A DNA stretch of 64,000 nucleotides from Thermoanaerobaculia bacterium (GTDB lineage: Bacteria; Acidobacteriota; Thermoanaerobaculia; Multivoradales; JAHEKO01), in NCBI GenBank assembly GCA_963781065.1, contig CAWAET010000004.1:139093-203092 (forward strand), read 5' to 3'. Made by a program: the position numbers and the translations under genes. Under the pieces are notes generated by a model, which was given only the letters and a program-made list of their open reading frames with translations, did not search any database and had not been told where the DNA came from. Shown one piece after another: positions 46,551 through 50,801 of the stretch; the stretch's first letter is position 1, and every line of letters begins with the position of its first letter.

Positions 46551-49500
46551 ATGGGCCGGCGCGGCGAAGCGGACCGACCCGGCGCCGGCGGCGCGCGGCT
46601 GACCCACAGCCAGCGGCAGATCTGGCTCGGCCAGAAGCTCCACCCGGAGAGCCCGCTCTACAACATGGCCTTCGCCTTCCGGTTTCCGGCCGCGCTGGCC
46701 GCCGATCGGTTCACCGCCGCCTGGGGCCGCGTCGCCGGCGGCAGCGACGCCCTCGGCACCCGGCTGGTGGAAGACGAGGACGGCCCGCGGGCGGTCGTGG
46801 CGGCGAGCGCCGCTCCGACCACCGTGCTCGACTTCGGCTCGCGAGACGATCCCGAGGGGGAGTTCCGCCGTTGGTGCCAGGAGCGCTGCACCCGGCCGCT
46901 GCCGCTGACCGGCGCCCTGGTCGACAGCGTCCTCGTGCGGCTCGGGCCGGAGCGCACCGGCTGGTACCTCAACCAGCACCACCTGATCTGCGACGCCTGG
47001 TCGACGCGGCTGCTGTACCGCCAGGTCGCCGCCGAGTACGCGACCCTGGCGGGCGGCGACGGCGGCGAGCGGCCGGCGCTTGCCCCCTACTACCCCACCG
47101 CCGCGGTCCTGGGCTCGCCGGCCGCGGCGCCCAGGGCCGCCGAGCACCGGGCAGCCGCCGAGCACTGGGCCGCCGCTGAGCACTGGGCCGCTCGTCAGGC
47201 GCGCCCCGGCCGGGCGGTGCCCCTCTACGGCCGCGACGGCCGGCCCTCGGGGACGGCGAGCAGCCGCCTGACGCTCGAGCTCGACGAGGGCCGCTCGCGC
47301 GCCCTCGACCGGCTGGCGACACAGGAGGGCTTTGTCAGCCTGTCCGACGAGCTGTCGCGCTTCGCGCTCTTCGCCACCCTGCTGGCGAGCTGGCTGCACC
47401 GGGTCAGCGGCCGGGCCGACCTCGGCTTCGACGCGCCGGTCGGCGGGCGGCCGACCGCCGAGGCCAAGCGGGCGCTGGGCCTGTTCATCGAGATGTTCCC
47501 CTTCGCGGCGCGGATCGAGCCGGGCGACACCTTGCGCTCGCTCGGCGCCCGCTGCCTGGCGGAGGCCAAGCTGTTTCTGCGCCACGCCCGGCCCGGCCTG
47601 AGCGCGCCCTCGGGCGGCGCGGCCGGCAACGTCGTGCTCAACTACTTCCCGGCCGCCTTCGGCAGCTTCGCCGGCCTGCCGGCCGAGGTCGAGTGGGTCC
47701 ACCCCGGGCACGGCGACAGCGTCCACGCCCTGCGGCTCCAGGTGCACGACTTCAGCGGCGCGGGCCGCTACACCCTCCATTTCGACGGCAACGAGCGGGC
47801 GCTGCCGGAACGGCTGCGGCGGCGCGGGCCGGGTCAGTTCGAGCGGCTGCTGGCGGCCTGTCTCGAGGATCCCGAACGGCCGATCGCCGAGATCGACATG
47901 CGCACCGAGGAGGAGCGCCGGTCACTGGCCGTCCGGCACCGGACGGCTGCCGCGCCGCCGGCCGACCGGTCGGTGGTGGCGATGTTTCGCGCCCGGGCCG
48001 AGCTCGAGCCCGATCGAGTGGCCCTGCGGCAGGGCCTCTCGGAGGTCTCCTTCGGCGAGCTCCACGCCCGCTCCGAGGGGCTGGCCGCGGTCCTGGTGGA
48101 GCGGGGCCTCGAACCGGGGGATCGGGTGGCGATCGTCGCCCGGCGATCGCCGGACGTCGTAACCGCCATCCTGGCCACGCTACGGGCCCGAGGCGCCTAC
48201 GTGCCGATCGAGCCCTCCGTTCCGCGGGCCCGCCTCGAGGAGCTCCTGCGGGACTCCGGCGCCCGCTTGCTGCTGACCGACGACGGCGCGCCCGAGACCG
48301 CGACGCTGCCCGGGGTCCAGCGGCTCGAGATCGCCGACGGAGTTCGCGCCGGCGCCGGCCGCTGGCCCGACCGGTACGGGCCCGAGCTCGCCGATCTGGC
48401 CTACCTGATGTACACCTCGGGCTCCACCGGCCGGCCCAAGGGCGTGCTGATCGAGCACGGCGGGCTGGCCGCCTACCTCGACTGGGCCTCCCGGCGGTAC
48501 GTCCGCGGCGATCGGCTGACCTTTCCGCTGTTCACTTCGCTGGCCTTCGACCTGACCGTCACCAGCCTCTTCCTGCCGCTGATCACCGGCGGCACGCTCG
48601 AGATCTACCCGCAGCCCGAAGGCCCGGTGGACTCCGCGCTGATGGACGTGGCGCGGGCCGACGCCGTCGACTTCATCAAGCTGACTCCTTCGCATCTGGC
48701 GCTTCTCGCCCGGGTCGGGCTCGACGGCTCGCGGATCCGCCGCATGGTGGTCGGCGGCGAGAACCTGGCGACGCCGCTGGCCGCGGCGATCAGCACCCAG
48801 CTCCAGGACCGGGTGGAGATCCACAACGAGTACGGACCGACCGAGGCGGTGGTGGGCTGCGTCGTCCACCGCTACGACCCCCAGCGGGACGTCGACGCCA
48901 GCGTGCCGATCGGCGGCCCGGCGGACCACGTCGAGGTCGAGGTTCTCAACGAGGCGCTGGCGCCGGTGCCCGAGGGCGTGCCCGGCGAGCTCTGGGTCTC
49001 GCTGCCGGGTCTGGCGCGCGGCTACCACGGCCGCGCCGGGCTCACCGCCGACCGCTTCCGCCCCCATCCGCGGCGCCCGGGAGAGCGCCGCTACCGGACC
49101 GGCGATCGGGTGCGGATGGTGGACGGGGAACGGCTCGAGTACCTCGGCCGGCTCGACCGGCAGCTCAAGGTGTCGGGGTTCCGCGTCGAGCCGGCGGAGA
49201 TCGAGGCCGCCCTGCTCGCGGTGCCGCAAGTGGAGCAGTGCGCCGTGGTCGCCAGCCGGCGGCCGGTGGCGGTGCTCGAGACCGCCGGCGAGGTCCGCCA
49301 CTGCGCTCGCTGCGGTCTGCCCTCGAACTACCCGCGGGCGGCCTTCGACGAGGAGGGCGTCTGCAGCGTCTGCCGCGCCTACGAGGTGAGCGCCGAGCGC
49401 GCCCGTGCCTACTTCGGGTCGATGGACGATCTGCGCGCCATCTTCGCCGACTCCGCCCGCGCCCACCGCCCCGCCTACGACTGCCTGATGCTCTTCAGCG

Positions 49501-50801
49501 GCGGCAAGGACAGCTCCTACGCGCTGTGCCAGCTGGTCGAGATGGGCCTGTCGGTCTACGCCTTCACTCTCGACAACGGCTTCATCTCCGACGGCGCCAA
49601 GCGGAACATCCGGCGGCTGGCCGAGAAGCTCGGCGTGCCGGTCGAGCTCGCCACGACGCCGGCGATGAACGCCATCTTCCGCGACAGCCTGATGCGCTTC
49701 TCCAACGTCTGCAACGGCTGCTTCAAGACCATCTACACCCTGAGCATGAAGCGGGCGCGGGAGCTCGAGATCCCGATCATCGTCACCGGCCTGTCGCGCG
49801 GCCAGATGTTCGAGACCCGGCTGACCGAAGAGACGTTCCGGGACGGGCGCAGCCCGGAGGAGATCGACGCCGCGGTGCTGGCGGCGCGCAAGCACTACCA
49901 CCGGATGCCCGACGAGGTGACGCGGTCGCTGGGCGGAGAGCTCTTTCGCGACGACCGGATCTTCGAGGAGGTCAGCTTCGTCGACTTCTACCGCTACTGC
50001 GACGTCGGGCTGGACGAGGTGCTCTCCTATCTGCGCCGCGAGGTGCCCTGGGTGCGCCCGGAGGACACCGGCCGCTCGACCAACTGCCTGATCAACGACG
50101 TCGGCATCTATGTCCACCAGAAGGAGCGCGGCTTCCACAACTACGCCCTGCCCTACAGCTGGGACGTGCGCCTCGGCCACAAGGACCGGCAGGCGGCGCA
50201 GGCGGAGCTCGACGACGACATCGAACCGCAGTCGGTGCGCGAGATCCTGGCCACGATCGGCTACGACGAGCAGCGGCTGAGCCCGGCCGTCGCGCAGACG
50301 GCGCTGCACGGCTTCTATGTCGCCTCGGCCGAGGTGCCGGAGGCCGAGCTCAGGCGGCGGCTCGGCGAGCGCCTGCCGCCCCAGCTTGTTCCCACGCGGC
50401 TGCAGCGGGTGGCGGCGATCCCCCTCGCCGCCAGCGGCAAGGTCGACGAGCAGGCGCTGCTGCGCCAGGCCTCCGACCTGCCGTCCGCGGTCTCCTACCG
50501 CCCTCCCCGGGGGCCGGTCGAGGATTTTCTCGCCGAGCTCTGGCAGGAGGAGCTGGGGGTCGAGCGGGTCGGCGCCGACGACGACTTCTTCGAGCTCGGC
50601 GGCACCTCGCTCTCCGCCATGCAGGTCATGCTGCGGCTGTGCCGCGAGTTCGCTATCGATCTGCCGCTCGCGACGATCTTCTCCAACCCGGTGCTCGGCC
50701 GGCTGGCCGAGGTAGCCGAGGAGCGGATCCTGGCCGACGCCTCCCGCATCCCGGAGGCCGAGCGACAGCGACTGCTGGCGGAGAGTGAGCCGCTCAGCTG
50801 A
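46551..50801 (+). CDS. NRPS module C - A(interrupted by PP-loop domain) - T
   Basis: C: NQHHLICDAWS. A: YTSGSTGRPKG, NEYGPTE, YRTGD, GRLDRQLKVSGFRVEPAEIE, then the insert, then LPPQLVP, ASGKVDEQAL. T: FFELGGTSLSAMQ. Confidence 0.9.
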   Translation: MGRRGEADRPGAGGARLTHSQRQIWLGQKLHPESPLYNMAFAFRFPAALAADRFTAAWGRVAGGSDALGTRLVEDEDGPRAVVAASAAPTTVLDFGSRDDPEGEFRRWCQERCTRPLPLTGALVDSVLVRLGPERTGWYLNQHHLICDAWSTRLLYRQVAAEYATLAGGDGGERPALAPYYPTAAVLGSPAAAPRAAEHRAAAEHWAAAEHWAARQARPGRAVPLYGRDGRPSGTASSRLTLELDEGRSRALDRLATQEGFVSLSDELSRFALFATLLASWLHRVSGRADLGFDAPVGGRPTAEAKRALGLFIEMFPFAARIEPGDTLRSLGARCLAEAKLFLRHARPGLSAPSGGAAGNVVLNYFPAAFGSFAGLPAEVEWVHPGHGDSVHALRLQVHDFSGAGRYTLHFDGNERALPERLRRRGPGQFERLLAACLEDPERPIAEIDMRTEEERRSLAVRHRTAAAPPADRSVVAMFRARAELEPDRVALRQGLSEVSFGELHARSEGLAAVLVERGLEPGDRVAIVARRSPDVVTAILATLRARGAYVPIEPSVPRARLEELLRDSGARLLLTDDGAPETATLPGVQRLEIADGVRAGAGRWPDRYGPELADLAYLMYTSGSTGRPKGVLIEHGGLAAYLDWASRRYVRGDRLTFPLFTSLAFDLTVTSLFLPLITGGTLEIYPQPEGPVDSALMDVARADAVDFIKLTPSHLALLARVGLDGSRIRRMVVGGENLATPLAAAISTQLQDRVEIHNEYGPTEAVVGCVVHRYDPQRDVDASVPIGGPADHVEVEVLNEALAPVPEGVPGELWVSLPGLARGYHGRAGLTADRFRPHPRRPGERRYRTGDRVRMVDGERLEYLGRLDRQLKVSGFRVEPAEIEAALLAVPQVEQCAVVASRRPVAVLETAGEVRHCARCGLPSNYPRAAFDEEGVCSVCRAYEVSAERARAYFGSMDDLRAIFADSARAHRPAYDCLMLFSGGKDSSYALCQLVEMGLSVYAFTLDNGFISDGAKRNIRRLAEKLGVPVELATTPAMNAIFRDSLMRFSNVCNGCFKTIYTLSMKRARELEIPIIVTGLSRGQMFETRLTEETFRDGRSPEEIDAAVLAARKHYHRMPDEVTRSLGGELFRDDRIFEEVSFVDFYRYCDVGLDEVLSYLRREVPWVRPEDTGRSTNCLINDVGIYVHQKERGFHNYALPYSWDVRLGHKDRQAAQAELDDDIEPQSVREILATIGYDEQRLSPAVAQTALHGFYVASAEVPEAELRRRLGERLPPQLVPTRLQRVAAIPLAASGKVDEQALLRQASDLPSAVSYRPPRGPVEDFLAELWQEELGVERVGADDDFFELGGTSLSAMQVMLRLCREFAIDLPLATIFSNPVLGRLAEVAEERILADASRIPEAERQRLLAESEPLS
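49299..50270 (+). other. PP-loop ATP-pyrophosphatase / WbuX-like amidotransferase domain inserted in the A domain
   Basis: HCARCGLPSNYPRAAFDEEGVCSVCRAY (Cys4) followed by YDCLMLFSGGKDSSYALCQLVEMG (SGGKDS at 49497-49514). Lies between A8 and A9. Confidence 0.75.

Follow-up and report, generated by a model that had tools for sequence, protein, structure and literature searches.

The DNA analysed here (the window) is a stretch of 64,000 nucleotides (nt) from contig CAWAET010000004.1 of a Thermoanaerobaculia bacterium (assembly GCA_963781065.1). It carries the gene of a nonribosomal peptide synthetase (NRPS) module composed of condensation (C), adenylation (A) and thiolation (T) domains, which is preceded by a cassette of putative starter-unit genes and followed by a second NRPS and genes for glycosyl transfer, methylation and export (Table 1). 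The A domain of the first module is interrupted by a PP-loop domain. We conclude, with a probability of about 0.8, that this insert is an aminomutase/amide dehydratase (AMDH) domain like those of CysH and AlbIV, acting on carrier-bound asparagine by the mechanism proposed below.

An adenylation domain interrupted between A8 and A9

Pfam profiles assign residues 16-459 of the NRPS to Condensation, 479-826 to AMP-binding and 1326-1387 to PP-binding. The core motifs of the A domain follow one another as A3 (residue 621), A5 (759), A7 (848) and A8 (866-885), and the series resumes with A9 (1275), A10 (1295) and the carrier motif GGTSL (1350-1354). The AMP-binding_C profile is split: only its positions 1-23 are matched in the window protein, at residues 883-905, and the rest of the profile (positions 24/29-76) is found downstream of the insert in full-length homologues, with the split point at profile position ~23/24. 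Interruption of the A domain between A8 and A9 by an insert of ~345 residues is thus confirmed.

A sequence-only reading of this DNA had reported the interruption, with the motifs in the same order, as well as a Cys4 knuckle and an SGGKDS PP-loop within the insert. Both reports hold, the knuckle being formed by C918, C921, C938 and C941 and the PP-loop by residues 983-988. The spacer between HCARCG and GVCSVC has 13 residues rather than the 15 given there, and the coordinates proposed for the insert, 49299-50270, describe well the stretch that matches the family profile TIGR03573 but fall slightly short of the whole insert (nt ~49266-50300). Among the profile models named in that reading, Condensation, AMP-binding, the split AMP-binding_C, PP-binding, TIGR03573 and, weakly, QueC were matched. 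The insert is also an autonomous domain, because it folds confidently when modelled by itself (AlphaFold2, 17-sequence alignment; predicted local distance difference test score 89.1, predicted template modelling score 0.90).

The A8-A9 insertion site is common to the window NRPS and to the classical interrupted A domains, which contain methyltransferase, ketoreductase or oxidase inserts. The logic of modifying an aminoacyl thioester in cis is shared as well, whereas the inserted fold and its chemistry differ. A 2020 survey of interrupted A domains contains methyltransferase inserts only and does not list the PP-loop type, and a 2024 review of A domains does not mention it.

Kinship with the AMDH domains of CysH and AlbIV

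The insert aligns with the AMDH domain of CysH over the whole domain length, with 48% identity and 66% positives in 325 amino acids (BLASTP E-value 7e-120), a similarity well outside what chance would give. Like the window, CysH of the cystobactamid producer Cystobacter velatus and AlbIV of the albicidin producer Xanthomonas albilineans possess SGGKDS, the zinc knuckle, NVCNGC and GRSTNC, and in all three the PP-loop domain resides in an Asn-specific A domain. The specificity code of the window A domain, DLTKVGEVC(K), matches the code DLTKIGEVC of CysH and AlbIV exactly save for one I/V change, and the unusual Cys at position 9 is shared. We take this code to be asparagine-type. Codes of the form DLTK[IV]GEVC were found in ~125 of 130 family representatives. 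The AMDH sequence of CysH, taken from the supplement of PMC7966384, carries every motif of the family, including the cysteine triad discussed in the next section, and the SGGKDS motif, which is invariant in the family, coincides with the SGGKD "core region 1" of AMDH (PMC7966384). Since sequence, motifs and host-domain specificity agree, we regard membership of the insert in the AMDH family as established.

Various functions of this family are known from experiment. AMDH was described as a 38 kDa domain inserted in the Asn-activating A domain of the standalone modules CysH and AlbIV. L-Asn bound to CysH loses 18 Da in vitro, yielding beta-cyano-L-alanine, and CysH lacking the AMDH domain does not dehydrate Asn; in vivo, deletion of AMDH abolishes both the cyanoalanine and the isoasparagine linkers. 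After beta-hydroxylation by CysJ, AMDH acts as an alpha,beta-aminomutase; isoasparagine linkers dominate in the cystobactamids, and deletion of cysJ leads to more nitrile product (all PMC7966384). The sequence-only reading had found no precedent for a PP-loop enzyme inside an A domain. That claim has to be withdrawn: the architecture is already known, having been put forward for albicidin and then characterised both in vitro and in vivo in the cystobactamid pathway (PMC7966384), and its wide occurrence had been noted as well. Moreover, the homologue list in the supplement of that paper overlaps the related loci analysed here (Tropicimonas sediminicola, Algoriphagus halophilus, Confluentibacter, Pricia antarctica, Zobellia uliginosa and Verrucomicrobiae DG1235). 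That reading had itself allowed for homologues of assigned function, and in this sense its domain call stands and only the novelty falls.

In the mechanism that we propose, the A domain would select L-Asn and load it onto the T domain, as shown for CysH and as the code suggests for the window. At the expense of ATP, the PP-loop domain would then turn the side-chain carboxamide of the tethered Asn into an AMP-imidate, activated at the oxygen, and elimination of AMP would produce beta-cyano-L-alanyl-S-T, in line with the 18-Da loss in CysH. The adenylate route is suggested by the PP-loop and by other ATP-dependent nitrile synthetases, amide-to-nitrile dehydration of this kind having precedent in ArtA/NitB and CalN (PMC13060819). 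The same chemistry, activation of the amide oxygen followed by AMP elimination, is proposed for the nitrile synthetases as a group (QueC/ToyM, ArtA/NitB, CalN and PesC). Their similarity to the insert is weak and limited to the PP-loop (QueC Pfam 22.6 bits; structure 9lei E-value 0.055), and they use free or peptide substrates, in contrast to AMDH, which is served by an NRPS T domain in cis. The QueC profile PF06508 scores 22.6-25.2 bits and covers profile positions 2-75 of 210, that is, the PP-loop region only; the same region gives a weak Pfam match to ThiI.

The alternative outcome of the reaction would be isoasparaginyl-S-T, favoured in the cystobactamid pathway after hydroxylation by CysJ. 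A special case of the AMDH reading is that the insert serves mainly as an Asn alpha,beta-aminomutase and that the module delivers isoasparagine. The ability of the CysH domain to perform both reactions and the prevalence of isoasparagine linkers in cystobactamids speak for it. On the other hand, the mutase outcome is favoured by CysJ, the cysJ deletion raised the nitrile (PMC7966384), and no hydroxylase of the TauD/SyrP/CysJ type was found at 40-64 kb of the window or among the conserved neighbours of related loci. For the latter reason the nitrile is the more likely product, and we consider a predominant mutase function unlikely.

The genetic setting of the domain differs from that of its characterised relatives. 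CysH and AlbIV each consist of a standalone A(AMDH)-T module, from which the product is passed on in trans (by CysB) to an assembly line for aryl amides; the substrate of the AMDH domain is a T-bound aminoacyl thioester. In contrast, the window protein is a C-A(AMDH)-T module working in cis, fed by a cassette of a proline-type A domain, a carrier protein and a dehydrogenase, and followed by a C-A-T-thioesterase (TE) protein and glycosylation genes. Profile searches identified no equivalents of CysJ, CysQ or CysB among the window genes.

The cysteine triad and the relatives of the fold

Seven cysteines are 98-100% conserved in an alignment of 120 homologues, namely the four of the knuckle and C1054, C1057 and C1179. 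The latter three (the triad) are conserved at >=99% and present in CysH. Three conserved cysteines of the CxxC...C pattern in combination with a PP-loop, as in AMDH, are also a feature of TtuA/TtcA, Fe-S LarE and CtaC. This combination is the signature of Fe-S LarE (PMC9283937), and in CtaC, an Fe-S PP-loop enzyme that acts on carrier-bound amides, the cluster ligands were tested by mutation (PMC6772006). CtaC resembles AMDH further in its substrate, carrier-protein-bound amides, and in its set of Zn, ATP and Fe-S motifs. In alignments, the CxxC of the insert family coincides with that of Methanococcus maripaludis LarE-[4Fe-4S] (8cnz), and the spacing from PP-loop to triad is 66/3/122 in the insert versus 76/3/127 for the tested ligands of CtaC. 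On these grounds we propose an active-site metal centre that may be bound by the triad and would most likely be a [4Fe-4S] cluster.

In 2021 the mechanism of AMDH was described as unknown and without structural template, and CysH was reported to be dark brown. An Fe-S site in CysH was dismissed there because the radical-SAM (S-adenosylmethionine) motif CxxxCxxC is missing (PMC7966384). A [4Fe-4S] cluster bound by the CxxC...C triad may be the reason for the colour, which is the sole hint of the metal content of AMDH.

The same features could be taken to mean that the insert is a thioamide synthetase, in which a [4Fe-4S] cluster held by the three cysteines gives sulfide to the AMP-activated side-chain amide of Asn, or to the N-acyl linkage, much as CtaC does with peptidyl-carrier-bound substrates on the way to closthioamide; the dehydration seen with CysH would then be the outcome when sulfide is not delivered. 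In Fe-S sulfur insertases, a PP-loop with CxxC...C is the signature that has been tested (PMC9283937, PMC6772006), the CxxC is aligned with that of LarE and the spacing is CtaC-like. The fold matches ranking directly after the best one (below) are all sulfur inserters (YcfA, TtuA and LarE), CysH is dark brown, and a nearby HupE/UreJ-type protein and the TonB receptors of related loci would fit a soft-metal ligand. However, the similarity of AMDH to the Fe-S sulfur inserters is confined to the nucleotide-binding core, and known AMDH products are sulfur-free, albicidin and the cystobactamids holding a nitrile or isoasparagine instead of a thioamide. The 54 neighbourhoods share no conserved gene for a sulfur donor, the family is frequent among aerobes, and CtaC could not be placed in the triad-bearing clade: its residues 78/154/157/284 have no match among the best 120 standalone homologues. 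We consider sulfur insertion by the window domain improbable, and down-weight it because the domain belongs to the AMDH family, for which nitrile and isoasparagine products were shown experimentally.

The standalone homologues form a triad-bearing clade of 1233 proteins of ~335 amino acids, many of them from anaerobic Bacillota, which keep the zinc knuckle, the PP-loop and the triad. They are annotated as QueC, TilS or hypothetical proteins and may be carrier-protein-dependent amide modifiers. One of them, on the Bacillus thuringiensis HD1002 plasmid NZ_CP009349.1 (L005, 7995-8966), directly follows an acyl carrier protein (ACP) gene in a cluster with two adenylating enzymes, two peptidyl carrier proteins (PCPs), a ketosynthase, FabZ, FabG and AsnB.

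The closest overall fold belongs to another family, the N-acetyl-sugar amidotransferases (NASATs; WbuX/WbpG/PseA, TIGR03573), which is defined by SGGxDS and CxxCxn[GN]xCxxC and whose first structure (PMC10607449), 8wex, was released in 2024. In a Foldseek comparison with the PDB, 8wex was the top match of the insert (E-value 1e-11, template modelling score ~0.64, range 0.63-0.65), followed by YcfA (6-thioguanine), TtuA-[4Fe-4S] and LarE-[4Fe-4S], with asparagine, carbapenam and GMP synthetases among the further matches. The insert carries the NASAT signature (the four knuckle cysteines with GVCSVC, and SGGKDS), and TIGR03573 is its best family in NCBIfam (E-value 3.6e-28, profile positions 4-323 of 344). 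The fold assignment of the sequence-only reading, which had pointed to PP-loop enzymes related to WbuX and to asparagine synthetase, is therefore sustained at the level of the PP-loop (AANH-superfamily) fold, the signature and the best structural match. The amidotransferase function that it inferred from them is not.

According to that function, the domain would convert the tethered amide into an amidine with ammonia. Nearly complete coverage of the TIGR03573 profile, the fold match and the zinc knuckle and PP-loop held in common favour it. But the score of 99 bits is half the curated cutoff of 203.2, and the pocket differs. Six annotated NASAT genes from plasmids were used for comparison; all six proteins have the knuckle and the PP-loop and can be aligned with the insert to its C-terminus, and all six lack equivalents of C1054, C1057 and C1179. 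They have an IGQKAY-type sequence in place of NVCNGC and an acidic NSIDD in place of GRSTNC, so that an Asp or Ser within NSIDD stands at the position of C1179. A profile alignment of the insert family with 8wex extends from the knuckle to strand 2 only. NASATs act on nucleotide sugars and are paired with HisH and HisF-like suppliers of ammonia, whereas AMDH acts on carrier-bound amino acids. Genes for HisH and the HisF-like WbuZ/AglZ adjoin 5 of the 6 NASATs (none was seen in the short stretches around the Alistipes gene, and asnB lies instead upstream of the Agrobacterium gene), yet HisH/WbuZ homologues are found in none of 54 AMDH-related neighbourhoods of at least 17 kb each. Finally, characterised AMDH members do not make amidines. 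In view of the sub-cutoff score, the differences in pocket and triad and the missing partners, an amidotransferase function is unsupported, and we judge it very improbable.

Both paralogous domain types occur side by side on two Rhodobacteraceae plasmids, NZ_CP106737.1 (L003, Roseovarius pelagicus) and NZ_CP049039.1. Each has a true NASAT, accompanied by WbuZ/HisH and genes for nonulosonic acid, and, ~18 kb away, a 2682-residue AMDH NRPS with a cassette of carrier, dehydrogenase, HupE and A-domain genes and a flippase.

Distribution, neighbouring genes and predicted product

An exhaustive protein search returned 2987 cluster representatives at E <= 1e-3, of which 586 remain at E <= 1e-30; the top 150 all have E < 1e-114 and almost all lie within NRPSs. 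In a scan of species-representative genomes the AMDH insert was found in at least 408 genomes from more than 10 phyla, those listed including Acidobacteriota, Verrucomicrobiota, Bacteroidota, Cyanobacteria, Chloroflexota, Actinomycetota, Alpha- and Gammaproteobacteria, Planctomycetota, Gemmatimonadota, Calditrichota and Desulfobacterota. The nearest relatives among the matches listed are from Acidobacteriota metagenome-assembled genomes. Family representatives are mostly of ~1400 residues (C-A-T), ~1850 residues (C-A-T-C) or longer (C-A-T-C-A-T-TE with or without a methyltransferase), with the insert near residue 900. Chimeric assembly at the junctions and decay of the insert to an inactive remnant both have negligible probability given the same uninterrupted frame and architecture in this many species genomes and in 586 protein clusters, the intact and invariant catalytic motifs and the confident structure model; a chimera in particular is excluded because hundreds of independent genomes, among them complete chromosomes and plasmids, share the architecture.

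The domain goes unnamed in routine annotation. For instance, a divergent AMDH-type insert (42% identity) on plasmid NZ_CP108680.1 of Streptomyces sp. NBC_01216 (62232-63170, H18) belongs to a protein whose annotation is just "condensation domain-containing protein". The closest long contig (L001, ENA ERZ25039508 contig_6343; 80% identity) has its cluster broken into many short gene calls, which is typical of frameshift-rich long-read assembly. Apparent standalone proteins of the C-terminal A subdomain, insert and T domain (homologues of <565 amino acids in the first search) proved to stem from frameshifted assemblies or from truncation at contig ends, and full-length NRPSs emerged from the exhaustive search.

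Table 1. Genes and features of the window in the region of the interrupted NRPS module
Feature	Position (nt)	Strand	Evidence
Acyl-CoA-dehydrogenase-fold enzyme, best match L-prolyl-[peptidyl-carrier-protein] dehydrogenase (RedW/PigA type)	42326..43468	+	Pfam Acyl-CoA_dh_N/M/1; NF045652
HupE/UreJ_2-family membrane protein with N-terminal extension, start codon uncertain	43465..44658	+	PF13795, E 6e-34
Standalone A domain, proline-type relative, true start probably near 44650-44700	44334..46277	+	Pfam AMP-binding and AMP-binding_C
Small carrier protein (PCP/ACP)	46249..46548	+	Pfam PP-binding, E 4.3e-5
NRPS module C-A(AMDH)-T	46551..50801	+	1416 aa; Pfam domains
A8 motif GRLDRQLKVSGFRVEPAEIE (866-885) and first strand of the A subdomain, right before the interruption	49146..49265	+	Motif; AMP-binding_C positions 1-23 at 883-905
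Inserted AMDH domain, PP-loop/AANH fold, ~residues 906-1250	49266..50300 (approx.)	+	BLASTP to CysH AMDH; TIGR03573; AlphaFold2; Foldseek
Cys4 zinc knuckle C918, C921, C938, C941	49302..49373	+	98-100% conserved (120 homologues); matches NASAT Zn motif
PP-loop SGGKDS, residues 983-988, ATP alpha-beta pyrophosphatase motif	49497..49514	+	Invariant in family
C1054-x-x-C1057, first two triad cysteines	49710..49721	+	100% conserved (120 homologues)
C1179, third triad cysteine, in GRSTNC	50085..50087	+	99% conserved (120 homologues)
A9 (LPPQLVP) and A10 (SGKVD), A subdomain resumes	50373..50447	+	Motifs; AMP-binding_C positions 24/29-76 after the insert in homologues
Thiolation (carrier) domain, GGTSL phosphopantetheine site	50526..50711	+	Pfam PP-binding, E 1e-15
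Family-2 glycosyltransferase	50911..51768	-	Glycos_transf_2, E 2.7e-24; syntenic in L002
SAM-dependent methyltransferase	52744..53568	-	Pfam Methyltransf_23/11
Second NRPS, C-A-T-TE, upstream end approximate	53562..57630	-	Pfam Condensation, AMP-binding, PP-binding, Thioesterase
GT4-family glycosyltransferase	57747..58919	+	Glyco_trans_1_4 / Glyco_transf_4; syntenic in L002
Polysaccharide/oligosaccharide flippase-type membrane protein, start approximate	58947..60390	-	Polysacc_synt_3, E 2.4e-65; syntenic in L002
UDP-glycosyltransferase (EryCIII/UDPGT type)	60383..61789	-	EryCIII-like_C, UDPGT; related glycosyltransferase in 11-14 of 54 loci
Sulfotransferase (cluster edge)	61983..62750	-	
Flavin amine oxidase (cluster edge)	62996..64000	+	Syntenic with L002

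The genes upstream of the module form a cassette that recurs at the 54 related loci. Homologues of the dehydrogenase are present at 37 of them, of the HupE-like protein at about 36-37, of the standalone A domain at 42 and of the carrier protein at 36-43, an 83-residue carrier open reading frame (ORF) lying directly upstream of the NRPS at 43. Ornithine cyclodeaminase (20-21 loci), a phosphopantetheinyl transferase (13) and a TonB-dependent receptor (13-14, mostly in Bacteroidota and also in Verrucomicrobiae DG1235) are found less often, and no sulfur donors, glutaminases or hydroxylases are among the conserved neighbours. In the Bacteroidota loci and DG1235 the receptor gene adjoins the NRPS (e.g., L079 12048-14282 and L046 1398-3638). 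This position, together with the presence of the HupE/UreJ_2 protein across phyla, hints at re-uptake of the product, perhaps a metal chelator.

The dehydrogenase is closest to the profile NF045652 (ProlPCPDhRedW; E-value 4.6e-112), which it matches with 375 bits at an equivalog cutoff of 650, and its score of 360 bits with PigA is below cutoff as well. The standalone A domain passes the cutoff of the amino-acid adenylation profile TIGR01733 (326.8 versus 317.4). Its code in the window is CFFYLAVVCK, in which Cys replaces the near-universal Asp235 and the rest is proline-like. The same replacement occurs in the standalone A domains of five related loci, which belong to the subclade of the window; judged by this position, the substrate of the window enzyme may lack a free alpha-amino group. 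Elsewhere the codes are mostly D[MIL][FL]Y[LF][GA][VI][QV]CK, with one canonical Pro code, DVQFVAQVVK. Because of the proline-type codes and the match to a prolyl-carrier dehydrogenase, we infer that the starter is probably pyrrole-2-carboxyl, derived from proline, and not a fatty acid. A lipopeptide with a fatty-acyl starter, made by a fatty acyl-AMP ligase, an ACP and an acyl-CoA dehydrogenase, was considered and rejected, since the dehydrogenase is nearest to the prolyl-PCP type and the ligase passes the amino-acid adenylation cutoff and belongs to a family with proline-type codes.

After formation of the cyanoalanyl thioester, the N-terminal C domain would acylate the residue with the starter supplied by the cassette, most likely pyrrole-2-carboxyl. 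The convergent C-A-T-TE protein, whose A domain has the code DSALIAEVWK, would add one residue and release the product, which the glycosyltransferases, the methyltransferase and the flippase would tailor and export. The called ORF of this second NRPS (53562-58859, minus strand, 1765 aa) is over-extended, its first ~450 codons being a shadow of the GT4 gene on the opposite strand; its syntenic counterpart on the metagenomic contig L002 has 1355 residues, and the true window protein is likewise of about that length. The downstream gene arrangement as a whole is syntenic with that contig, and the downstream tailoring genes are not conserved across phyla in the 54 loci. The two genes at the cluster edge may also tailor the product. 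The literature search gave no paper that connects pyrrole-2-carboxyl with either cyanoalanine or isoasparagine.

Elsewhere in the window, a 956-residue protein with PP-binding, AMP-binding and PlsC-type acyltransferase domains (24882-27752, plus strand), similar to the Aas acyl-ACP synthetase/lysophospholipid acyltransferase, is apparently unrelated to the cluster. A class A penicillin-binding protein (12395-14953, plus strand) and an Omp85/POTRA outer-membrane protein (18262-19998, minus strand) indicate a diderm, despite the 72% G+C of the window.

Several points weigh against the assignment of the window domain to AMDH and against the pathway built upon it. CysH and AlbIV work in trans as A-T proteins, and the window protein is a C-A-T module in cis with a different starter. 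At 48% identity to CysH, the balance of dehydratase and mutase, or even the chemistry, could differ in the clade of the window. The ATP dependence of the AMDH step is a proposal, rather than an experimental result, of PMC7966384. The Fe-S centre is proposed from a motif and an alignment, and a dehydration that forms a nitrile has no obvious need for such a cluster. The pyrrole starter is deduced from sub-threshold matches (375 versus 650 bits), and the standalone A domain of the window is devoid of Asp235.

A further-reaching view is tentative, and we consider it somewhat less probable than its negation. According to it, AMDH on the NASAT fold binds a [4Fe-4S] or other Cys3 centre, which would be the first for amide dehydration or isomerisation, or else the centre inserts sulfur in this large orphan clade; in addition, the cassette in at least 408 genomes would make widespread pyrrolyl-cyanoalanine (or pyrrolyl-isoasparagine) metabolites, possibly metal-binding.

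A PP-loop-interrupted, Asn-specific A domain is in itself no discovery, since the type had been put forward for albicidin and shown to operate in cystobactamid biosynthesis. The parallel between the triad and [4Fe-4S] enzymes, the scale of the family and the context of the cassette go beyond the literature searched. The NASAT scaffold combined with a cysteine triad of the Fe-S type offers a testable explanation both for the mechanism of AMDH and for the brown CysH. The conserved starter cassette in hundreds of species favours pyrrolyl over fatty-acyl or aryl starters, and suggests that orphan pyrrolyl-(cyanoalanine/isoasparagine) products are made from it. Peptides rarely contain nitrile warheads or isoasparagine linkers, both of which are of pharmacological relevance, and the cultured carriers of the cassette, Algoriphagus halophilus, Tropicimonas sediminicola and Verrucomicrobiae DG1235, are available for discovery of the products.

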